Made by a program: the position numbers and the translations under genes. From the sequence record NC_028903.1: DNA of 64,000 bases; one strand, 5' to 3'. The notes beneath the pieces were generated by a model. That model did not search any database, had not been told where the DNA came from, and worked only from the letters and a program-made list of their open reading frames with translations. The DNA is from Escherichia phage 172-1. Below, one piece after another: positions 48,052 through 63,590 of this stretch (the stretch's first letter is position 1; every line of letters begins with the position of its first letter).

Positions 48052-49896
48052 TTAGTGCGTATGCATCCAGTTGAGTCCAATCTGACAATCAGATGCCAGA
48101 GGACATTCCATGTTCAAATACTCACCAGCCTTCTTAACACAAAGCTCGGTGTGCTCTTTGAGTTTCTGTACATCATTACGATTAACTGAGAACTGGCCCT
48201 CATCATGCATATCAATTACCTTAGCACAACGAACTCCATCCTTCTCAATCCACTTGTTAAGGAACATCATAGCATATTTCATAACAACAGCACCAGCACA
48301 TTGCAGGAGAGTGTTAAGTGCTTTATGAACCATAACCTTACCAGTGGCATCTCGTCTCATTGTAATCTTACGACCATCAACACCAATCAAGTACCCTTGA
48401 GCTGCTTTCTCTGTCATACGATCAATGAGGATTGCAATACATGGGTTCTCTGCCAAGAAACGTGCTCGCATCACTGAACCTTCATCAGCCCCACCACCTA
48501 CAATTGAACCAAGCTTAGCATCACCAGCACCATAGTTGAATGCGTAGATAAACGTCTTAGCGTTGTCACGAGTAGGAAGACCAGCAAGTCTCTGGTTGTG
48601 GGAGTGGATATCACCTTCAAGGAGAATATCACGATACATAATAGCAGAAGCTAAACCACGTTCTGCCAGAGCTTTCTTAGCTGGATTATTCTCTTCTATT
48701 GCTTCAGCAAGCATATCCCTACACTCTTTAATGAGGTAGTGTGCGAGCATACGCAATTCTAATCCAGAACCATCATACCCTAAGAATACTTCTTTACCAG
48801 CGGGTATGTAATATTTGTAAGCACCTACAGGTTTGTCTTTCTTCCCCGGCTTACCTTTCTCATAAATTACGTTAGTACCTTTTCGTATATAACAACCATC
48901 AGGAACAACGTTAGTAATAACGAAAGGACGAGAGTGATCATCATCTGAGTTATAGTCAGACTCAAACAAACCGCGACACTCATGACCAAACAAACCACGG
49001 GAGGGAATATTAACCACGATACGATGTTTGAATCGAAAAGTCGGAGTAGCGCAGCTGTTAGCTTCTGCCGAAAGTTTACCATCTTCGCGTTCCTTTGCTA
49101 TAAGTCCACTGATAAGACCTAGCCTGTGAGCCGCTACAACGCGTCTCTTAAGCAAACTTCCGACACTCCCTAGCTCACCCCCTAACCCTTCTTCAAGAGT
49201 CTCCTCGAGGTTTGTAGGAGCTGTAGGCCACTTGTTTGAGGTAGCTAGTGCTATCTTAATCTCATCAAAAGTGATAGGTCTACGTCGGTTAGGATTTAAA
49301 CCTAAACCAAAAACATAAGCCTTCATGTAGTTCTTAGTTTTAAACCTAAAGTGCTTCTCTAAGAACTTTCTGATATCAGCGTCAACCATCTCGGCTGTCT
49401 GCTTCTGTTTAGAATTACCTCGCATCCAAGCTGAATACCATGCTTGGTATGTTCCATACTTTCGCATATCTTTCTTGATTTCAAAAGTATTCCAAGGTTT
49501 CTTTGATACGTTAAACTCTGGAGGAAGAAAACCCTCATCCATAAGGGCTTCTTTAACTCGTGCATCTTTCGATGGGTCAAAGTCCACGTATTCAACACAG
49601 GTGAATGCTCCACCAATGTCCTCTCTCTTAAGTCCAACTCTATCACAATAGGCTTGAGGCCACTTCTGTAAAGCTCCAGACTTCTTAAATGGCTTCATAT
49701 AAGTAGAGCCATCTAATCTCATCTTAGGTAAGAGAGGAATTAATTCTTTGTCAATATTAACAATAATCTCTTTAAGGAGGTGAACATACCACCGAGCATT
49801 TCTTTGGTTGAAACTCACTCCGTGCTTCGCTTGCTTAGAGATTATATCAGCGACAGTCATCTCTGTCAAAAATGGGAGAGCGTCCGGGTTGCTCAC
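48052..49896 (-). CDS. family A DNA polymerase, polymerase domain only
   Basis: 614 aa; motif A DGSGLELRMLAHY, motif B RDNAKTFIYAFNYGAG, motif C HDE; no exonuclease motifs in N-terminus. Confidence 0.85.
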   Translation of the reverse strand: MSNPDALPFLTEMTVADIISKQAKHGVSFNQRNARWYVHLLKEIIVNIDKELIPLLPKMRLDGSTYMKPFKKSGALQKWPQAYCDRVGLKREDIGGAFTCVEYVDFDPSKDARVKEALMDEGFLPPEFNVSKKPWNTFEIKKDMRKYGTYQAWYSAWMRGNSKQKQTAEMVDADIRKFLEKHFRFKTKNYMKAYVFGLGLNPNRRRPITFDEIKIALATSNKWPTAPTNLEETLEEGLGGELGSVGSLLKRRVVAAHRLGLISGLIAKEREDGKLSAEANSCATPTFRFKHRIVVNIPSRGLFGHECRGLFESDYNSDDDHSRPFVITNVVPDGCYIRKGTNVIYEKGKPGKKDKPVGAYKYYIPAGKEVFLGYDGSGLELRMLAHYLIKECRDMLAEAIEENNPAKKALAERGLASAIMYRDILLEGDIHSHNQRLAGLPTRDNAKTFIYAFNYGAGDAKLGSIVGGGADEGSVMRARFLAENPCIAILIDRMTEKAAQGYLIGVDGRKITMRRDATGKVMVHKALNTLLQCAGAVVMKYAMMFLNKWIEKDGVRCAKVIDMHDEGQFSVNRNDVQKLKEHTELCVKKAGEYLNMECPLASDCQIGLNWMHTH

Positions 49897-53454: not shown

Positions 53455-54111
53455 TTAATTCTCCAAAGTTTTCTTCAGAGCTGCCCACGAGATTGGGTAG
53501 AGTTTAGCCATCTCTTCATCCAGAGATTGAGCAAACACTCGAACTTCATACTGAGCATGGGAGGATAGTCGCTGACGACACAACTCAAACCAGCCATACA
53601 AAGAACCAGTCCACACCCACTCAGTGATCATTCCCTGAGGAAGAACAAATCGGGCTTGTTCTGGTGCAACGAACTCAATCAACTTGTCATATGCTGCTAG
53701 AGAAGCTTCATATGCATCGTTAATCAACATTAATGCTTCAGCTCGCTCTCCATTGATGAGTTGAACCCCTGAACCTGCATGGAGGTCCGAAGGTCTCGCA
53801 AAAATCTCTTTAGGGATGAAGACTTCAACTGCTCCGTCTTTATACCTCCGGGACATTTCGTTCCACGAAAACCCAATTTGGTGCTTGCCCAACTGTCTCG
53901 CAATTGCGATAGGTGCTTTGCATCGGAAACTGACTTGTGGGTGTCGGAATGGAGTAACATGCTTCTCTCTTGCGAGGAAGTTGATGAGACGTTCATCACG
54001 TTCATTTAAATCACCTTCACGGGTTACGCCAAAGGAAACTCGAGCTGCGTTTACTACGCTACGATCACTTCCCATAGCTTCGATTAATGTTGCTTGTAAT
54101 TGTTCATTCAT
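53455..54111 (-). CDS. thyX: flavin-dependent thymidylate synthase ThyX homolog (variant active-site motif)
   Basis: 218 aa; recalled ThyX-like core (VVNAARVSFG, HVTPFRH, KAPIAIARQ, SHAQ); RHR-x7-S motif replaced by KHQ-x8-S. Confidence 0.7.
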   Translation of the reverse strand: MNEQLQATLIEAMGSDRSVVNAARVSFGVTREGDLNERDERLINFLAREKHVTPFRHPQVSFRCKAPIAIARQLGKHQIGFSWNEMSRRYKDGAVEVFIPKEIFARPSDLHAGSGVQLINGERAEALMLINDAYEASLAAYDKLIEFVAPEQARFVLPQGMITEWVWTGSLYGWFELCRQRLSSHAQYEVRVFAQSLDEEMAKLYPISWAALKKTLEN

Positions 54112-54126
54112 CCGTGAATTTCCTTA

Positions 54127-54336
54127 TTAATATTCTTTTACATAATAAACCACTAAGGTTCCCATCTCTGACAATGTTGATTTATGTAAGCTTACTTTAC
54201 TATAAATCTTTGGGGCCATCTTAAGAGCCTTCTTAAAACGGCGAGCATCTTTACGAGTAGCAAAGTGCTCTGTAACAGGTATAGCCGGGTCTTGGTAGAG
54301 GTAATATACCACCGTCCAATATTTTTTCATAATCAA
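54127..54336 (-). CDS. small protein, TRxxAR/YY paralog family (member 4)
   Basis: 69 aa; ATRKDARRFKKALK core and C-terminal YY-type ending. Confidence 0.45.
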   Translation of the reverse strand: MIMKKYWTVVYYLYQDPAIPVTEHFATRKDARRFKKALKMAPKIYSKVSLHKSTLSEMGTLVVYYVKEY

Positions 54337-54605
54337 ACACCTAGGGCAGTAGTTAAGAATGCTTTCAGGTTTGCTTCGGTCTGCATACCAGAGAGACTAT
54401 AGTGTGCACCACTATTACGGTCAGGTACAACGAAAGCAGGGATGCTTCTTACACCATACTTAACAGCTTGTTCACGACCATCACCTTCAAGGATGTTAAT
54501 CTCTTCTACTTCTACATCGAACTCCTTAACAACCTTCTCAAAGGTAGGAGCCATTGCTTTACATGGAGCACACTGATCACTATAAAACTTAATCACTTTA
54601 GACAT
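54333..54605 (-). CDS. thioredoxin/glutaredoxin-like protein
   Basis: Start at ATG 54603-54605 (MSKVIKFYSDQCAPCK...); CxxC active site. Confidence 0.55.
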   Translation of the reverse strand: MSKVIKFYSDQCAPCKAMAPTFEKVVKEFDVEVEEINILEGDGREQAVKYGVRSIPAFVVPDRNSGAHYSLSGMQTEANLKAFLTTALGV

Positions 54606-54795
54606 TCTATTCCTTGTTAATAAACAGGTTGATATGACGTTGGGTAGCAGGAACAACAATAAAAGATTTATACTGACCTTTTGCTAAGTCATGAGCAATC
54701 TTCTTTGTCTGACCAAGACCCATCACACAGCCACTAACAATAATGGCGTGTGCTTGCAACTCTTCAGGGAGTTTTAGTTTCATTCTTCAGGTTCC

Positions 54796-54981
54796 TTACA
54801 GCATAGCAAGAATGATAATAAGAGGTAATGTTATAGCGAAATTAATAAGAACAGCGCTGCCTAGCTTGATAGCTTTAACATCCTCTTCTGATGGGTTTTC
54901 TTTAATTGCTAAATTTCGAGCTTTATATATAACAGTACCAATTATTAACGACCACACGGCCCACACAATCAGTGAAATCAT
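54796..54981 (-). CDS. small two-TM membrane protein
   Basis: 61 aa; two hydrophobic helices. Confidence 0.4.
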   Translation of the reverse strand: MISLIVWAVWSLIIGTVIYKARNLAIKENPSEEDVKAIKLGSAVLINFAITLPLIIILAML

Positions 54982-54990
54982 ATCAAACCC

Positions 54991-55170
54991 TTATGCAGTC
55001 AGGAGGTGAAGCAGGAATGGGATAACAACAGCTACGACAACCATGATGGTTGATGCTGTTTGAATCTCACCTTTCTTGTCAGGAGTTTCTTCAATAAGCT
55101 TGCCAGAAGCCCAATAGATACCACCACCAATAAAGACAGCCCAAATACCCCATACGATTGCTGATAACAT
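54991..55170 (-). CDS. small two-TM membrane protein (paralog of 54796..54981; not in ORF track)
   Basis: 59 aa ORF found by hand (MLSAIVWGIWAVFIGGGIYWASGKLIEETPDKK...); same architecture as neighbour. Confidence 0.35.
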   Translation of the reverse strand: MLSAIVWGIWAVFIGGGIYWASGKLIEETPDKKGEIQTASTIMVVVAVVIPFLLHLLTA

Positions 55171-55231: not shown

Positions 55232-55795
55232 TTAGTAAGACACATCGCCACTTGAGTGGGACATGTTGCTCTTGACGAAGTAGCAATACTTGCCAAGACC
55301 TTCATTAATTTCTTGAAGCATACTCTGATCAACTGGATAAGTGGCTAAATCACCATCAAACTCATCCATCTTCTCAATAATACACATCAAGGTCATGCAC
55401 ATATCAGAGAGCATACCGTCCATATCTAGGTCAGCATTACCCTCTGAGAACCAAGCATGGGAGAGATAATTGGCTGCTGTGGCGTCCACTTTAACACAGT
55501 GGTAACGCATACGTTCAGCAATACGATCTCCTACTTGTCGTGCGTAATCTTCCAGCTCATCAAACATACCATGAACACCCTGAAATCCTGCACCAGAGAC
55601 GTTCCAATGGTAGTTTTTAGCTTTGATATGCAAGAGTTCCATGTTAGCTTGTAAGCAGCTCAGGATGTGTTCTAGGCTGTTTCCACTAATCATACCCTGC
55701 ATTGTTTCAAGGCGAGAGATTGAAAGCTCGGACCGGTCTAACATATTGTATTCGACACGACCAATATCAGGTAAATCAAAGACATTCTTATGCAT
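55232..55795 (-). CDS. dps: Dps-like ferritin (DNA-binding ferritin-like protein)
   Basis: Start at ATG 55793-55795 with GGAGAT RBS; NYHWNVSGAGFQGVH (H-x11-H) and GDRIAE (D-x3-E) match recalled Dps ferroxidase-centre spacing. Confidence 0.6.
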   Translation of the reverse strand: MHKNVFDLPDIGRVEYNMLDRSELSISRLETMQGMISGNSLEHILSCLQANMELLHIKAKNYHWNVSGAGFQGVHGMFDELEDYARQVGDRIAERMRYHCVKVDATAANYLSHAWFSEGNADLDMDGMLSDMCMTLMCIIEKMDEFDGDLATYPVDQSMLQEINEGLGKYCYFVKSNMSHSSGDVSY

Positions 55796-56117
55796 TTGGG
55801 TTATCTCCATCAAGTTCAACTGAATTAGCAACGTTACGTTCGATGTTTGCCATCACTTGCTGCGTTATGACAATACAGTTCTGTGGGTCTACTGACTTAG
55901 AACGCCCCATTTCAGGGTCATACACCTTAACTCGCTTAGCAGTTGAACCTGTAACCTGAAGAACCTTCAACAGATATCCCTGATTACCAATAGACCAAGC
56001 AACAACATCACGATTCTTGATAAAGCGACCAAGCATATCACGATGATAAAACTGTTGCATCACCTTGGATTTTGTAATCTCTTCAGTGGGCGGGGCCACT
56101 TTACTCAAATCTAACAT
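55788..56117 (-). CDS. hypothetical protein
   Basis: 109 aa; preceded by promoter motif. Confidence 0.45.
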   Translation of the reverse strand: MLDLSKVAPPTEEITKSKVMQQFYHRDMLGRFIKNRDVVAWSIGNQGYLLKVLQVTGSTAKRVKVYDPEMGRSKSVDPQNCIVITQQVMANIERNVANSVELDGDNPNA

Positions 56118-56190: not shown

Positions 56191-56400
56191 TCAGTAGTAA
56201 ACATTCCGAGATAGCATACAAGTACTTTCTGAGAATTCAACCCAACGGTGTATGCTAACATGCTCAACCGTACCGACCAGAGCTTTCATATTCTTTTTAG
56301 CAATACGAGCCTCTTTGCGAGTGTTAAACAGTTTGATATTATCTTTTCCCAAGTGTTGCTCGTGATTCCAAACAACACGAATAGCCCACATCTTTTTCAT
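56191..56400 (-). CDS. small protein, TRxxAR/YY paralog family (member 3)
   Basis: 69 aa; NTRKEARIAKKNMK core, ends VYY. Confidence 0.45.
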   Translation of the reverse strand: MKKMWAIRVVWNHEQHLGKDNIKLFNTRKEARIAKKNMKALVGTVEHVSIHRWVEFSESTCMLSRNVYY

Positions 56401-56609
56401 CAGTAGTGTACCTTTCCGCTGATATAAACACGACCAGAGGAATACTCTCTGGCCTTATGAATACTGATGCTCTTGATCATATCTATATTAAACATGGACT
56501 TTTTAAAATCTCGAGCTTGTTGGCGAGTAGGTAGTGCAGTCATAGTCATACCGCCTGATGCCCACTTAATCTTTGCTAACCAAAACTGTCTCATAGTGAT
56601 TGGTCTCAT
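56400..56609 (-). CDS. small protein, TRxxAR/YY paralog family (member 2)
   Basis: 69 aa; PTRQQARDFKKSMF core, ends VHY. Confidence 0.45.
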   Translation of the reverse strand: MRPITMRQFWLAKIKWASGGMTMTALPTRQQARDFKKSMFNIDMIKSISIHKAREYSSGRVYISGKVHY

Positions 56610-56806
56610 TAATAATAAACCTTGCTGTTGGCAAAAAGAGCACCTTCGTTATTCACAATAGCTTTTCCTATTGTAACCTTATTGAGTCTAAAAGTAGACT
56701 TGTATTGGTTTTTGACCCTACGGGCGTGTTCTCGAGTATTAACAAAATCTACAGCTACTAACTCTCCAGTCGTGTTATCATGTACACGAACAATCCACTT
56801 TTTCAT
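56609..56806 (-). CDS. small protein, TRxxAR/YY paralog family (member 1)
   Basis: 65 aa; NTREHARRVKNQYK core, ends VYY. Confidence 0.45.
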   Translation of the reverse strand: MKKWIVRVHDNTTGELVAVDFVNTREHARRVKNQYKSTFRLNKVTIGKAIVNNEGALFANSKVYY

Positions 56807-57009: not shown

Positions 57010-57543
57010 TTACACACCCTTAGATGCAACAACACCTTCAGAGTTATTATAACGACCCTTCACTGCATAGGAATGTTCCCCTGCATGAGAGTGCTCAAAC
57101 ATCACCATCTGACCAACACGCATACCAGCACGAACTCGTAAGCTATGATGCTTGGTTACGTTGTGGAATTCAAACGTCAGCTTACTGCTATTAAATCCAG
57201 CATCAGCCCATCCAGCATGTAGGTGGTTCAAACCACAACGAGCCATAGATGAACGAAGAACAAACAGGCTTGAGATATTATCTGGAAGATTAAACTCCTC
57301 CATGGAGTGAGCCAAGAAGAACTGACCCGGAGTGATAACCAAACCCTCTTCAGGAATCTTTACTTCCTTCCACTGAAGATTTTCTTTCGCATCAATATCA
57401 ACGATGCCATCAGCCTGTTCTTCAACAAGGATAGTATCACCAATACGGATATCCACACTAGCAGCGTTAACATACTTATGCTCCGCATCCAGATAGCCAT
57501 TGTCAATTACATCGTGCAGTTCAACACTTCCTAGTAAACTCAT
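57010..57543 (-). CDS. dcd: dCTP deaminase (dUTPase-fold)
   Basis: 177 aa; ASVDIRIG, RSSMARCGL, AGWADAGF and YNNSEGVVASK align with the recalled E. coli Dcd sequence. Confidence 0.7.
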   Translation of the reverse strand: MSLLGSVELHDVIDNGYLDAEHKYVNAASVDIRIGDTILVEEQADGIVDIDAKENLQWKEVKIPEEGLVITPGQFFLAHSMEEFNLPDNISSLFVLRSSMARCGLNHLHAGWADAGFNSSKLTFEFHNVTKHHSLRVRAGMRVGQMVMFEHSHAGEHSYAVKGRYNNSEGVVASKGV

Positions 57544-57552
57544 TCTTATTCC

Positions 57553-58908
57553 TTAGTTATTTGTTTCCATGTCAAAAGAGATTCCACGACCCGCTTCATC
57601 GGCAAACCGAACTGTACGGGTTTGAGGCTGCAATACTTCAGGGTTATCAGCAACAAAGCGATCAGCGAGACTGCGGCTGACGGTCTCAGCTAATTCACCA
57701 TGAGAAGGGATATTAAGATCGGCGAGATTATCAACCACATCTTGGGCCACGTCTTCATCAGTCCATACAGCCCTAACAGGTGCGTTGAAACTCTGACCAG
57801 AGAACTGGTGACGGCTAACAGTCAAACCATTTGATTGACCATTAGAACGTCTAGACAACCACTGCTCAAATGAATCGCCAGTAACACCAAGAGCTTCTTC
57901 AAAAGATGTTCTACGAGTAGAGCTTAGATTTCGTGCTTCGTTTGCTCGACGTCTTGCAGGGGCTACAAACACCCCTTCAACTGCATTGTGCCGATTAGGT
58001 TCATCTTCTCGACCAAGGAGATCTCCTCCTGTATTAGTTGTTAAGTTTGTCAACCCTTCAGACCAATATGCACGAATCTGGCTAGAGCCATGAACACTTG
58101 ACATTAACTGAATCTCTTCGTAAGGTATTCCAAAGAATAGACTCATGTCTCGGTTAACACAGTATTGAGCACTTGTTGTATCCTCAATAAGAGAAACCTG
58201 ACCTAATCCATTAACCAGATGACTAACTGGCTGAGGTGTAGGAAGGTATCGAGTTTGGGCCATATATTGATATGCAACAGATGGAGCTGAGAATCTTAAC
58301 ACTTGTGAATTAGGCCACTTTTTGTGAACGTATCTGATTTCACGACTAGAAACAACCACAGGGCAAGGAGCGGTCATAGCTAAATATCCATGAGGAGTCA
58401 TGAATAGGTTGTCAAGAGTCATCGCACCACGGCACATCATAGGAAAATTATCCAATACCTCTTCAATAGAAGTAGGATAATTAAACATGAATTGAATGCG
58501 GGTTCCATTCCACTGAAACTCAATAATATCAGTGAATGTTAATTGAGAACCCCCAGCATATGATTCGTTTGTAGCTTCAGCAAGAAGGGATGCATACTCG
58601 ATATCTTGTGATTCAAGCCACTCTTTCACATTGCTTTCAATCTCTCGTCCAAGAGCTTGCCAATGATCAACTGTAGTGAAAGTATTTTGAGTCCCTGGCG
58701 TCTGTCCTCTGACAACGAAGATATCAATATCGTGAGGTGCTATGTTATTAAGCACGGCATCACGAACAGCCCCACCAGTAATGATAGGGCAAATGCCGTC
58801 TGGAATCAAGTTGTTGTTAATCAACTGTTCAATGAAGTGACGACCAACAGTGATATCAGGTTGTTGAGCAACCTTATCTTCAATTCGGTTAATCGGGATA
58901 ACAATCAT
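57553..58908 (-). CDS. nucleotidyltransferase, tRNA-NT/poly(A) polymerase head-domain family
   Basis: Start at ATG 58906-58908; ITGGAVRDAVLNNIAPHDIDIFV = GGxVRD...DxD pol-beta signature; C-terminal ~300 aa unrecognised. Confidence 0.55.
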   Translation of the reverse strand: MIVIPINRIEDKVAQQPDITVGRHFIEQLINNNLIPDGICPIITGGAVRDAVLNNIAPHDIDIFVVRGQTPGTQNTFTTVDHWQALGREIESNVKEWLESQDIEYASLLAEATNESYAGGSQLTFTDIIEFQWNGTRIQFMFNYPTSIEEVLDNFPMMCRGAMTLDNLFMTPHGYLAMTAPCPVVVSSREIRYVHKKWPNSQVLRFSAPSVAYQYMAQTRYLPTPQPVSHLVNGLGQVSLIEDTTSAQYCVNRDMSLFFGIPYEEIQLMSSVHGSSQIRAYWSEGLTNLTTNTGGDLLGREDEPNRHNAVEGVFVAPARRRANEARNLSSTRRTSFEEALGVTGDSFEQWLSRRSNGQSNGLTVSRHQFSGQSFNAPVRAVWTDEDVAQDVVDNLADLNIPSHGELAETVSRSLADRFVADNPEVLQPQTRTVRFADEAGRGISFDMETNN

Positions 58909-58909
58909 T

Positions 58910-59464
58910 TTACATTTTCCAATATAATGAAGGTGGGTCGTAAGGGTCAAATCCCGTGAGTTCACACAAGTATTTATAAACCTTAACGGTTAAGTTAACG
59001 TCCTGTTCACAGTAAGTAAACATATCTTCAGTGAAAGCATCCCATGCTTCCTCTTGCTCACCGTAGTCTCCTTTAAGTTCCTCTAAGAACTCACCCCATT
59101 GCTTCAAACCATGACCTCTTGGGCCATGTCTAGGGTCACCTTTCGGATACTCAGGACTGTCACCAATACGGTCAGGTTTAAGATATCGACTAAGACACAA
59201 GGTGTCGAAGACGTTAAAACGATAGTCGATCAGATTGGGATACATCTTCTTCAGAGCACAAAGGTCGAAGTCAATAATATTATGACCTACGAGCACATCA
59301 GCTTCTGTAAGTTTACGAATCCCATCTTCAATTTGGTGAGGCCGATAGCCCCACCTTTCACCAGTTTCAACATCGAAGATGTAAATACACCACACTTTAG
59401 TTATGTCATCGTACAGTGCATTACTCTCGATATCAAATGCAAACACTTTCTTTTTCTTTACCAC
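58910..59464 (-). CDS. DnaQ-like 3'-5' exonuclease (stand-alone proofreading domain)
   Basis: 184 aa; Exo I FDIES, Exo II HNIIDFD, Exo III YCEQDV motifs. Confidence 0.7.
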
Positions 59465-61248
59465 GGTGAAGCTCCATCTGCTTGATTGACGAGAGAAGCT
59501 GCATCCTCTCCGTTAGTCAAAACGAATGGATTATCTTCATCAACTTCAAAGTCTTCCCTTTCTACAAGTCTACCGGTTTCGCTGATATACTTAGTATAAC
59601 AGACACCCGTCTGACCATAGTTACGTTCTTTCAGTAATCGAATGACTGAGAGGTTCTTAGCTAAGCCGTCAGCTTGCTTATCACGCTCAAAGCCAATGAT
59701 ACACTGACACCAACGCATAAGAGAACGAGAGCCAGTGAACTGTACTTCACGTACCTGTCCACCTTCTTCGTGAGGAGCACCACCTGCCGGAGCATTAAGG
59801 TGAGATAGCACGAAAGCGGTAAAGTCTAATTCTTTACACATACCAGCAAGCTCGGAAGCAATCTTACTGATTTCAGTGTTAATCTCTGAAGGTGTTAAAT
59901 GAGATACCAGAGCGGTAATGTTATCAAGAATGATGAACTTACACTGGTTTTCAACTACCCAGAAACGGATACACTGTTTAATATCTTCCCATTCGTTCTG
60001 CCCAAAGTTGTCATACAAGAAGAATTTGTCTGCATAACGAAGTGCTTCATTACGCAAATCCTCCTCGTCATATTCAACATCGGGTCGGTGGAAAGGAATT
60101 GATGCTGACTTACCAGCGATGTTCTTAACAGACATGCCTACCTTCTCTTCCAAGAAGAAGCCACCCCCATTAAAGCCATGCTCTAAGCACAGATGAGCAA
60201 CCAGTTCGTGAGCAATTAGTGTTTTACCACTACCTACACCACCACCGATGGCTACTACCTCTCCCCATCGAATACCGAAGGTCATCTCATTAAGAGTTTT
60301 CCACGGATATGGAATACCCCACTCCGCTTTCTTCAGAGCATCATCAAGGCAATCAAAGATTGTTACAGCACCAGCAGGAGATTCCCGCTTTGCTGAATAC
60401 TTGAGAATGTTGAATAACTCTTGACCACGACCAGACAGAAGCATGTCATTCGCATCCTTAATCTCTTTCTCCACACCGTTGTATGGGAAAGTTCCTTTAG
60501 GAATACGAGCAAACTTGACATGAGGGAATAAAGAACGACCTTTTGTTAAAGCTATCTCACCTGCATCGTCATTGTCCATGCAGAGCACAACCTCCTCAAA
60601 ACCATTTACGAAGTCTCGATTACGAGACAACACAGAAGAGATTGAACCTGCACCGAACGGTAAAGAAACACATGCTGGCTTAATATTTGTTGCATTTGTA
60701 AAAGCTGTAAGGACATGGAAACCAGACATACAAGATAGCGGGTCTTCAAAAATAAACAGCTTCTTGTTGTACACATCTCCACGTTGAGCTTGTGCCATAC
60801 CAAATAAGTCTGCTTCTTTCACACTGCCAACGTAATAAAACTTCTTACTATCTAGCAGCTTAACCTCGTAACCAACAATGTTTCCATCACGTTCACGAGG
60901 AAAGAAGTAGCTGTCTGGAGTCTGACCATCAGTCTGACTTAGACCAATGCGACACTCAAAACGCTCTGATACAGCTTTAGGGATTAAACGTCGAGTAAGT
61001 TCACCCTGAGGAAGCTCTAAGCAATCATCTAAGACTTCTCTCAATTCTTCAGGGGATAACTCTTTCTTCTCGTTTGGAGTGGGTGTAGTGCCCTTTTCGA
61101 ACACTTCGTAATTCCCACAACGGTTACAACTTCCCCACTCCTCACCTGTCTCTTCGTTACGGAAGAGAATCATGTGGTTGTGGGTTTTATCACGACCATG
61201 AGAGATACATTCCTTACAACCTGTGTCTCCCAAAATGATCTTTGACAT
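59458..61248 (-). CDS. T7 gp4-like primase-helicase
   Basis: 596 aa; N-terminal Cys4 zinc ribbon, TOPRIM region, Walker [10 protein letters not shown] and Walker B ILDN helicase motifs. Confidence 0.85.
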
Positions 61249-61274: not shown

Positions 61275-61478
61275 TTAGTAGAACGAACGAATTTCATCCC
61301 ACACTTGTTCCTGTTCTTTCCTATAAAAAGAAAGTTGGGTCTTGAACATCTCCACTGATGATTCAAAGTTTTTAGATTGTGCAGCTTCAACGAAACGTTC
61401 ATGTCGGTTGATTTTGCACCGTAGCATTAAATACTTGGCTTCAAGTCTCCGAAGAGCCTGTCTTTTCTCAAGATTCAC
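61275..61478 (-). CDS. hypothetical protein
   Basis: 67 aa. Confidence 0.3.
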   Translation of the reverse strand: MNLEKRQALRRLEAKYLMLRCKINRHERFVEAAQSKNFESSVEMFKTQLSFYRKEQEQVWDEIRSFY

Positions 61479-61887
61479 TTTTCAGATACTCTGACCAGTC
61501 GCCAGATTCAACCAGAACGTCTTGTTCTTCGTCAATGTGATAAATCCAAGCGATAACAGTTTCACCTGAGTCCAGCTTAACGGCAATCTGGGTGCGTTGA
61601 TAGAAGCTATCTTCAGGGCTACGTTTGTTGTAACCTTCCAGTCGGTCATATGGACCTTCCAGACCTGCTTTGTCAGTAGCAAACACTTCTACACGAACAG
61701 GCTTATTGTTATTGCTGTGTGCGAGAGAGATGCTTGGGAAGTAGGAACCACCATAACGGAACAGATCGAAGTTGTCTTCAGTCCAACCTTCACCGATTGA
61801 CTTAGCACCAGCTCGGTCATTAACTAAATAGTTAGCTTGACCACGACGAAGAGAACCATAAGTTGCTACGTAAATTACTTCTGACAT
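61468..61887 (-). CDS. AIG2/GGACT-like gamma-glutamyl cyclotransferase-fold protein
   Basis: 139 aa; N-terminus VIYVATYGSLRRGQANY matches the YGTLKRGxxNH signature of GGACT/AIG2-like enzymes. Confidence 0.55.
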   Translation of the reverse strand: MSEVIYVATYGSLRRGQANYLVNDRAGAKSIGEGWTEDNFDLFRYGGSYFPSISLAHSNNNKPVRVEVFATDKAGLEGPYDRLEGYNKRSPEDSFYQRTQIAVKLDSGETVIAWIYHIDEEQDVLVESGDWSEYLKSES

Positions 61888-62393: not shown

Positions 62394-63590
62394 TTAGTAG
62401 TTTACAACAGTGCCATCATTCAGGGTAAGGCTATTAATCTGCAACACACGACCAAGCTGACGATCACTAATTGGTGCGTTCCATCCAGAGCGGTAGAAGT
62501 TACGACCACAGAAGAACAAGATCACATTACTTGCTACAGTCGAACCGTTTTCAGGATGCTTGATGTTAGCGATATAATAGCCACGACGTAGATTACGACG
62601 GGTTACCGGGTTGATCTCTAACCCTTGTTCTTCAACTTGCATTGTTTCAGGAACAGGCTCCGAAGACTCTTCAGCAACTGGCTCAGCTGACAATGCGAAG
62701 TTCTCGTCATCTGCTGATTCAGCAAATTCTTCTTCCACTTCTTCAACAGGCAGTTCGTAAGCAACGCGGTAGTCAGGATCAACACCAGAGAAGCTCTTAA
62801 CAAACTCAACAATATTATGAGTGTAAGTTTCTAGAGTTGTTCCAGTCAGGCCCGGAGCTGTATTAACTTCCAGAACCCAAGCGTTAGTACCTTTGCTAAT
62901 CAGGTCAACAGCACCGAAGTTCAAACCCAGAGCAGATACAGCTTTGTGAGCTTGAATCAGAACTTGATCAGGAGGCGCTTCAGTGAAGGAGTTAGAATAA
63001 ACCCAACCAGTGTGATGGTTACGAATATCTTCACGATATGTTGACAGATCGCGATAACCGTTACGACGAATCTTCTTCTGAACGTAAGTGATAACGCCTT
63101 CGAACACATGAACACGCCATTCACGACGTGGGCCTTGAATACCTTTGGTATATAGAGGGGCACGGGAAATACCTTCCGTCGGAAGACGAACAATAATACC
63201 TTCACCGGAGTGCCCATTTAGGATTCCACGCTCATAAACAATTTCGTTCTGGTTCCAATCTGAAGCCACACTCTGACTTACGGTATACTCTACAGTAGAT
63301 ACTCCAGCAGCTTCCAAAGTTTGAAAAGCTGTAACCTTATTAGCTGCTCGGTTCAATGCCACTACAGAGTTCAATACAGTTGCCCCACCAAAGAAAGAAT
63401 CGTTGTATCGACGGTTTCCGTAGTTGACAACAATATCACCAACCCGAGAACGATAACGAGAACCCTCTGATACCAGAGACATTACGTTAGCGTTTAAGCG
63501 GAGTTCCTGAATCTTAGTGTTAATTGCAGAAGTAAGTTCACGAACTGAATCAGAAGGGCCATAAGGAAGAACACGGATACGAGTAGTCAT
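62394..63590 (-). CDS. ATP-grasp ligase (RimK/GshB-like) with C-terminal extension
   Basis: 398 aa; GHSGEGIIVRLP, REWRVHVFEGV, and WVLEVNTAPGL motifs typical of ATP-grasp amide ligases; acidic linker plus ~90 aa C-terminal domain. Confidence 0.65.
   Translation of the reverse strand: MTTRIRVLPYGPSDSVRELTSAINTKIQELRLNANVMSLVSEGSRYRSRVGDIVVNYGNRRYNDSFFGGATVLNSVVALNRAANKVTAFQTLEAAGVSTVEYTVSQSVASDWNQNEIVYERGILNGHSGEGIIVRLPTEGISRAPLYTKGIQGPRREWRVHVFEGVITYVQKKIRRNGYRDLSTYREDIRNHHTGWVYSNSFTEAPPDQVLIQAHKAVSALGLNFGAVDLISKGTNAWVLEVNTAPGLTGTTLETYTHNIVEFVKSFSGVDPDYRVAYELPVEEVEEEFAESADDENFALSAEPVAEESSEPVPETMQVEEQGLEINPVTRRNLRRGYYIANIKHPENGSTVASNVILFFCGRNFYRSGWNAPISDRQLGRVLQINSLTLNDGTVVNY

Follow-up and report, generated by a model that had tools for sequence, protein, structure and literature searches.

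The closest described relatives of the gene analysed here are the phage anti-defence protein Gad2 and the short gp16-type nucleotidyltransferases (NTases) of T7-like podophages. Knockout of Gad2 sensitises phage SPbetaL7 to the Gabija defence system, a Gad2 homologue from a Brevibacillus prophage blocks Gabija, and AlphaFold predicts an NTase domain in Gad2 (10.1101/2023.05.01.538930), the mechanism of which a 2026 review still lists as unknown (PMC12904381). Gabija is counted among the commonest bacterial defences and has been reported from >15% of genomes (PMC10781630). A 2026 preprint described the gp16-type NTase of phage Emajogi as adjoining the primase/helicase, as having homologues annotated as Gad2 family and as cytotoxic when overexpressed. 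The gene in question lies on the minus strand of a 64 000-nt stretch of Escherichia phage 172-1 (NC_028903.1), the whole of which is called the window below, and its product is referred to as the kuravirus NTase. A first-pass annotation had described it as a tRNA-nucleotidyltransferase-like enzyme with a novel C-terminal half. Our analysis points to a catalytically competent, phage-restricted pol-beta NTase that may well act as an accessory counter-defence enzyme, a tentative reading to which we give a rough probability of 0.45 and which is more likely than that of a tRNA repair enzyme.

An exhaustive HMMER search with a profile hidden Markov model (HMM) against 1.84 billion representative proteins at E ≤ 1e-3 found only 31 family representatives of 274–482 amino acids (aa), and no canonical CCA-adding enzyme was retrieved at this threshold. 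These 31 sequences were otherwise 22–34% identical, but the motif A residues, the acidic residue 127 and the helix-motif residues listed in Table 1 were invariant in all of them, together with Y117, I128, Q139 and P156. Motif A has the class II form, GGAVRD...DID at aa 45–62, in every member, and the GGxVRD...DxD signature was present near the N-terminus as the first-pass annotation had read it. By analogy with the architecture of pol-beta NTases, D127 is probably the third catalytic carboxylate. Since the metal-binding DxD, the GG loop and the third acidic residue are all intact in the sequence, we judged the kuravirus NTase to be very probably an active enzyme.

An AlphaFold2 (AF2) model of aa 1–300 that was built from 31 diverse sequences had a predicted local distance difference test (pLDDT) score of 87.7 and a predicted template modelling (pTM) score of 0.84 and was folded to approximately aa 288, whereas 14 near-identical sequences gave a pLDDT of only 35. 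The features of the pol-beta superfamily were found, namely the alpha-beta-alpha-beta-alpha-beta core, hG[GS], [DE]x[DE] and a third carboxylate. Foldseek searches of PDB agreed with this fold assignment, and the best structural matches were class II tRNA NTases: E. coli poly(A) polymerase I (PAP I; 3aql, 10.5), the B. stearothermophilus CCA-adding enzyme (1miv, 9.7), an A-adding enzyme (4wby, 9.5), the T. maritima CCA-adding enzyme (3h37, 9.1) and the human CCA-adding enzyme (1ou5, 8.8), all with 167 or fewer aligned residues and a query-normalized TM score (TMq) of 0.42 or less. The HMM and structure searches together established the N-terminal ∼160–200 residues as a class-II-type (CCA/PAP-like) head of the pol-beta superfamily, upholding the superfamily placement of the first-pass annotation.

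The intact class II motif A and these structural matches favour repair of tRNA 3' ends, which the first-pass annotation had proposed, as do weak sub-threshold matches to PolyA_pol, phrog_2244 and, in one family member, NCBIfam CCA/PcnB. On the opposite side, motif B (RRD) and motif D (EDxxR) were absent from the kuravirus NTase and from the N-terminal 250 aa of 26 representatives of the family, and the tRNA/RNA-binding helical neck, body and tail domains were not found in the structural comparison with PDB. Pfam PolyA_pol (PF01743) scored 18.3–19 bits on the kuravirus NTase against a gathering score of 23, covering profile positions 3–83 of 126, and across the family 20 of 31 members matched at E ≤ 0.1 (best E 2.7e-4) while none reached the gathering score. 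When compared by hhalign with E. coli Cca or with a 27-sequence Cca profile, only 23–24 residues of motif A were aligned; the family reached a probability of 24.8% against the profile (E 7.9e-4, 24 columns) and Gad2 reached 0.5%, the low diversity of this Cca profile making it an imperfect control. A single-sequence search of PDB gave noise only, and a profile search of PDB reached CCA enzymes at E 0.0016 through motif A only. Moreover, the catalytic core is acidic (isoelectric point ∼4.8, net charge about −10) and no tRNA genes were found in the 64-kb window.

By profile comparison, the closest sequence relatives, all of them phage-only, proved instead to be two groups: the NTases of gp16 type found in phiKMV/T7-like podophages, and Gad2 through its NTase module. 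The kuravirus NTase matched phrog_1614 with an E-value of 6e-8 (aa 35–155, profile positions 31–138 of 268), and so did all 31 family members (best E 3.5e-11), 12 of which also matched phrog_10174, 6 phrog_4400 and 3 the tRNA-NTase phrog_2244. This phrog_1614 consists of short (170–230 aa) NTases of Autographiviridae, such genes being found in 225 phage records, mostly of Pseudomonas phages, and includes LKD16 gp16 (ORF16; E 9.5e-40), which sits between the helicase and ligase genes. The BFVD structural neighbours of the kuravirus NTase were also gp16-type NTases of phrog_1614. On these matches, we regard phrog_1614 as a sister family and phrog_12715 as the own family of the kuravirus NTase. 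The hhalign comparison with a single gp16 sequence was weak (E 4e-4, 41 columns), and when viral contigs were scanned with LKD16 gp16 the query was the sole match. The relatives recovered by a word-index search were all close kuravirus proteins with at least 67% identity, a second such search with the family alignment contributed just three distant members, and the PADLOC and NCBIfam HMM libraries gave no match for the kuravirus NTase.

When the family was aligned by hhalign with a broad Gad2 alignment into which short and proteobacterial homologues from the list of Yirmiya et al. had been taken, 92 columns (aa 41–166) were matched with a probability of 92.1% and an E-value of 6.2e-7. A Firmicutes-only Gad2 alignment gave 100 columns at E ∼1–2e-4 and a probability of 45–55%. 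A relaxed maximum accuracy (MAC) threshold extended the Gad2 alignment so that R189 and Y193 were paired with the invariant R/Y helix of Gad2 (S..R...Y..K). Gad2 itself matched phrog_1614 (8e-6) and phrog_4400 (6.5e-27), and precomputed Pfam annotations placed PF26128 'Gad2' on 30 of 44 kuravirus clusters, with the matches marked weak (1e-5 < E ≤ 1e-3). These alignments argue for homology of the catalytic module at the superfamily level rather than for membership in Gad2 proper.

The remaining ∼300 aa had been described as novel, and they are indeed unlike the neck, body or tail of any CCA enzyme, but they are not a single novel unit: the NTase head extends through aa 66–∼160, and a folded subdomain, a probably disordered tail and a conserved peptide follow (Table 1). 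The subdomain had no neck or body counterpart among the PDB structural matches and could be aligned across the wider family only up to approximately aa 215, the alignable core of the family running from aa 1 to ∼205–215 and extending to ∼290 in closer genera. The pLDDT of the AF2 model dropped to 35 at aa 290–300. The tail contains 23% hydrophobic residues and 21% R+S, has a ratio of nonsynonymous to synonymous substitutions (dN/dS) of 0.32–0.42 and includes the Arg/Ser-rich stretch pointed out by the first-pass annotation (32% R+S). Within Kuravirus, aa 1–300 were highly conserved, aa 300–415 contained many substitutions and indels, and the final ∼35 residues were conserved again. We infer that the tail could be a flexible tether carrying short docking motifs, with aa 416–451 as a candidate docking motif. 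Across the family the tails were unalignable, although many carried Trp in the last ∼12 residues and 9 of 27 representatives ended in an aromatic residue (W, F or Y; naive binomial P 5e-4). The T7-type primase-helicases encoded two genes upstream of the NTase (59458–61248 in the window; loci L008–L010) were likewise observed to end in an aromatic residue (...SPW, ...LPF). By analogy with T7 gp4 and gp2.5, the aromatic ends of the two proteins may reflect a shared mode of docking on the polymerase.

Table 1. Features of the kuravirus NTase gene and its flanking genes (window coordinates)
Feature	Position	Strand	Details
NTase coding sequence	57553..58908	-	451 aa, stop codon 57553-57555; full-length phrog_12715 match, E 5e-259
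Catalytic NTase head, class-II-like, Gad2-like	58429..58908	-	aa 1-160
Motif A ITGGAVRDAVLNNIAPHDIDIFV	58714..58782	-	aa 43-65; G45 G46 R49 D50 D60 D62 F64 invariant in 31/31 members
D127 codon	58528..58530	-	D or E in 31/31 members, on strand aa 125-133; probable third catalytic carboxylate
Lineage-specific folded alpha/beta subdomain	58039..58428	-	aa 161-290; AF2 pLDDT 86-96
Helix motif S-x-R-[DE]-x-x-Y-x-x-K-K-x-P	58312..58350	-	aa 187-199; D/E190, Y193, K197 invariant
Indel-rich polar tail, probably disordered	57664..58038	-	aa 291-415; contains Arg/Ser-rich aa 316-375
Conserved C-terminal peptide (RFVA[DN]NPEVL[EQ]PQTRTVRFADEAGRGISFD...)	57556..57663	-	aa 416-451; conserved in Kuravirus beside variable linker
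3'-5' exonuclease subunit of split DNA polymerase	58910..59464	-	upstream neighbour; TAA stop 58912-58910, 1 nt before NTase ATG
dCTP deaminase (Pfam DCD)	57010..57543	-	downstream neighbour; start 9 nt past NTase stop

An open reading frame (ORF) with a GTG start spans 57553..58965 on the minus strand. We took the ATG at 58908 as the real start because it lies 1 nt past the exonuclease stop and matches the annotated starts in NJ01 and Bas91. The window phage is a Kuravirus, a phiEco32/NJ01-like coliphage of C3 morphotype in Gordonclarkvirinae, and orthologues of the gene include NJ01_088 of phage NJ01 (97.6% DNA identity), phiEco32 phi32_73, SU10 CDS74 and Bas91_0067. The NTase was carried by all 96 Gordonclarkvirinae records found, which were those phages whose primase-helicase shares 80% identity or more with that of the window, and it always lay between the exonuclease subunit and the dCTP deaminase. 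With this occurrence, purifying selection (dN/dS 0.14–0.43) and the mass-spectrometric detection of one peptide from the SU10 homologue (PMC4281155), the ORF is a genuine gene rather than a chance reading frame. In phage vB-EcoP-XT32 (OR757435.1, 58709–60051), the NTase annotation is divided between two ORFs (358-aa product P0037), which reflects either a frameshift/pseudogene or a sequencing error. The annotation 'nucleotidyltransferase' already exists in ∼100 phages and was overlooked by the first-pass annotation, as were Gad2 and the phiKMV gp16-type NTases as informative relatives.

The gene was correctly placed by the first-pass annotation between the proofreading exonuclease and the dCTP deaminase. 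The order of gamma-glutamyl-cyclotransferase-like, primase-helicase, exonuclease subunit, NTase and dCTP deaminase genes was constant in every locus examined, comprising cultured kuraviruses, other genera and 70–90-kb metagenomic relatives. The nearest outgroups with the same replisome were without the NTase: in the operon of Aeromonas phage LAh_6 the exonuclease and dCTP deaminase genes flank a 123-aa ORF that proved to be unrelated, and in the LUZ24-like phage oldone only small ORFs follow the exonuclease gene. The NTase is an insertion specific to this lineage in a replisome operon that is otherwise conserved. In the window, the family A DNA polymerase is encoded in two parts, with the exonuclease subunit beside the primase-helicase gene and the polymerase body ∼9 kb away (48052–49896, minus strand), an arrangement common to LUZ24-like and LAh_6 phages.

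The NTase also diverges much faster than its neighbours. In a related locus (L006), protein identity to the window was 94.6% for the primase-helicase, 96% for the dCTP deaminase and 89% for the exonuclease but 36% for the NTase, and the corresponding values for phiEco32 were 99.8, 98.3, 95.5 and 78.5%. The collapse of DNA identity was limited to the NTase ORF, its dN/dS was 0.14–0.43, with the highest values in the tail, compared with 0.004–0.12 in the neighbouring genes, and its protein divergence was 10–100 times faster than theirs. The kuravirus NTase is thus a lineage-specific, universally retained and fast-diverging accessory gene with a frozen active site, a pattern typical of phage–host interface proteins.

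A counter-defence role, which the first-pass annotation had also suggested, is plausible through the kinship with Gad2, while its rationale of tRNA repair was not supported. The kuravirus NTase would be made alongside the early/middle replication genes and would transfer a nucleotidyl group from a (d)NTP, with either a nucleic-acid 3' end (for example at the termini of phage DNA) or a further nucleotide or small molecule as the possible acceptor. This transfer might blunt a nuclease-type host defence such as Gabija, as Gad2 does, and the variable tail and conserved C-terminal peptide would probably dock the enzyme on a partner, either a replisome component or a host target.

Several observations weigh against this interpretation. 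The Gad2 link is remote, with the Pfam match only in the weak class, and direct HMM-to-sequence scores between the NTase family and Gad2 did not exceed 19 bits, compared with up to 9.4 bits for shuffled controls, and derived mostly from motif A; against a Gad2 HMM built in this analysis, the kuravirus NTase scored 12.4 bits or less. The central helical region and C-terminal beta-rich domain of Gad2 (YKFVxK...FEY, aa ∼220–400; ∼120–400 when its whole helical and beta-rich C-terminal half is counted) had no counterpart in the NTase alignments, which went no further than the R..Y helix of Gad2. In the BASEL supplement the AntiDefenseFinder predictions contain no gad2 call, and the defence panel used for the BASEL kuraviruses did not include Gabija (PMC11990801). 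Furthermore, dN/dS was below 1 throughout, so that relaxed constraint could account for the evolutionary rate instead of an arms race, and the strict position in a replication/nucleotide-metabolism operon and the universality in the subfamily would also fit a housekeeping role in replication.

The alternative that survives best, though we consider it unlikely, is a replication, nucleotide-pool or DNA-modification enzyme that together with the dCTP deaminase makes covalently modified genomes or DNA ends against restriction. Gordonclarkvirinae resist EcoKI, EcoRI, EcoRV and EcoPI although no modification or inhibitor is known in them, and the BASEL authors suggested that this very NTase could form a modification pathway with the dCTP deaminase (PMC11990801). 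The invariant synteny of the primase-helicase, exonuclease, NTase and dCTP deaminase genes in the loci examined is in line with this suggestion, and the restriction sites were not depleted: the window contained 13 EcoRI, 29 EcoRV, 10 EcoKI and 104 AGACC sites, with EcoRI, EcoRV, EcoKI and EcoP1 at or above expectation. Site avoidance is thereby rejected as the source of the resistance to these restriction-modification (RM) systems, and some active protection is needed. On the other hand, LAh_6 keeps the exonuclease and dCTP deaminase of the same replisome without the NTase, the NTase far outpaces every replisome gene in its evolution, its neighbourhood has no other modification genes, kuravirus genomes are routinely sequenced, and dU-containing DNA is unlikely given that ThyX is encoded (53455–54111). 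We know of no class-II-type NTase that modifies DNA bases, and no published restriction digests of kuravirus DNA were found in three papers. As a separate observation on site usage, the window strongly avoids CCWGG (5 observed versus 83 expected), PstI CTGCAG (0 versus 17), KpnI (0 versus 7) and BamHI (1 versus 10) sites, its observed/expected ratio for GATC is 0.5, and thirteen 6-bp palindromes are wholly absent.

It is also conceivable, as a long shot, that the NTase is the factor behind the broad RM resistance of Gordonclarkvirinae, acting by nucleotidylylation either of phage DNA, terminally or internally, or of an intermediate bound to DNA during replication. The same chemistry would then explain the action of Gad2 against Gabija, and the tail, through its C-terminal peptide, would hold the enzyme at the T7-type replisome. 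Enzymatic DNA protection of this sort would be novel in kind.

Template-independent tailing of host or phage RNAs by a poly(A)/poly(N) polymerase-like activity, which could for instance hasten the decay of host RNA and supply nucleotides for the synthesis of phage DNA, appears improbable to a similar degree. PAP I has a basic C-terminal RNA-binding region that the Arg/Ser-rich tail resembles, and genes of nucleotide metabolism (dCTP deaminase, thioredoxin and ThyX) are nearby. However, tails were not consistently basic across the family, by which a basic RNA-binding tail was rejected as a family feature, the catalytic core is acidic, and both the RRD motif for ribose recognition and the RNA-holding neck and body of class II enzymes are absent.

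We assign a low probability to an enzyme that produces a nucleotide signal or consumes nucleotides; its product would be either a decoy or inhibitory nucleotide, as made by MNT-type phage NTases against TIR-STING, or one by which the GajA nuclease is held inactive. A precedent is given by competitor cyclic dinucleotides, which phage NTases of the pol-beta superfamily synthesise (10.1101/2022.06.09.495361), and the acidic core without an evident nucleic-acid-binding surface suits a small-molecule acceptor. The enzymes of Ho et al. nevertheless belong to a different clade (GS...SDxD, MNT-like), for which reason identity with an MNT-type anti-TIR-STING NTase was rejected, and such signalling would be one way for a counter-defence enzyme to work, not an identity of its own. 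Finally, repair of tRNA 3' (CCA) ends to counter host nucleases or tRNA-modifying toxins is very improbable given the missing CCA motifs and tRNA-binding domains, the PolyA_pol scores below threshold in all 31 members, the acidic core and the lack of tRNA genes described above, and a tRNA CCA-repair enzyme was accordingly rejected as largely refuted in silico.

Other features were noted around the replisome operon. Upstream of the replisome genes, a cluster shared with LUZ24-like Pseudomonas phages (61468–61887, 62394–63590 and on past the window; loci L002, L014 and L016) encodes gamma-glutamyl cyclotransferase-like, ATP-grasp/'S6 glutaminyl transferase', glutamine amidotransferase and amidoligase proteins. 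Downstream of the NTase and dCTP deaminase genes are a Dps/ferritin-like gene (55232–55831, minus strand; Pfam Ferritin in orthologues), thioredoxin (54333–54659) and ThyX. Four paralogous minus-strand ORFs of 65–69 aa, three of which abut in tandem (56609–56806, 56400–56609 and 56191–56400) with the fourth 2 kb downstream (54127–54336), share MKKxW...TRxxARxxKK and a C-terminal (V)(Y/H)Y, with pairwise blastp E-values of 2e-7 to 1e-3. Two adjacent small membrane proteins, also on the minus strand (54796–54981 and 54991–55170), are paralogous with 33% identity (E 1e-10).

While the protein itself was already annotated, the link of the kuravirus NTase and, via phrog_1614, of the gp16-type NTases to Gad2 is new, as are the domain anatomy and the evolutionary behaviour. 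Gad2 is a validated anti-Gabija protein, and if the kuravirus and gp16-type NTases share its catalytic module, many 'nucleotidyltransferase' genes of therapeutic coliphages and Pseudomonas phages would become candidate counter-defence enzymes. The work also bears on the resistance of Gordonclarkvirinae to all tested RM systems despite a target-site-rich window, and the BASEL phages Bas86–Bas93 offer tractable E. coli phages for working out the chemistry of the NTase.

Compared with known systems, the MNT-like phage NTases acting against TIR-STING (Ho et al.) share the pol-beta superfamily and an anti-defence function and give a precedent for mechanism, but their GS-x-AY..SDxD active site shows no specific similarity to the kuravirus NTase. 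Class II tRNA nucleotidyltransferases and PAP I share motif A GGxVRD...DxD, including the R-D pair that Gad2 lacks, whereas the kuravirus NTase is without their RRD and EDxxR motifs, neck, body and tail and stays below the PolyA_pol gathering score. The phiKMV/LKD16 gp16-type NTases are the nearest family by HMM and as BFVD structural neighbours and are likewise encoded next to a T7-type primase/helicase, although at 170–230 aa they have neither the aa 160–288 subdomain nor the long tail, and the match spans aa 35–155 only. Gad2 differs in having GGTITS where the kuravirus NTase has GGAVRD and an invariant D (FDFT) where the kuravirus family has the invariant P156, in the kuravirus NTase possessing its own subdomain and probably disordered tail, and in genomic setting, an anti-defence locus of a temperate Bacillus phage as opposed to a replisome operon. 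Nonetheless, both are phage-borne NTases with motif A hGG...DxD[FY]F, IQ, F[DP]xxxC and the S..R...Y..K helix in the same order, and the short members of the Gad2 list (214–278 aa) show the NTase module alone as a recurring unit.

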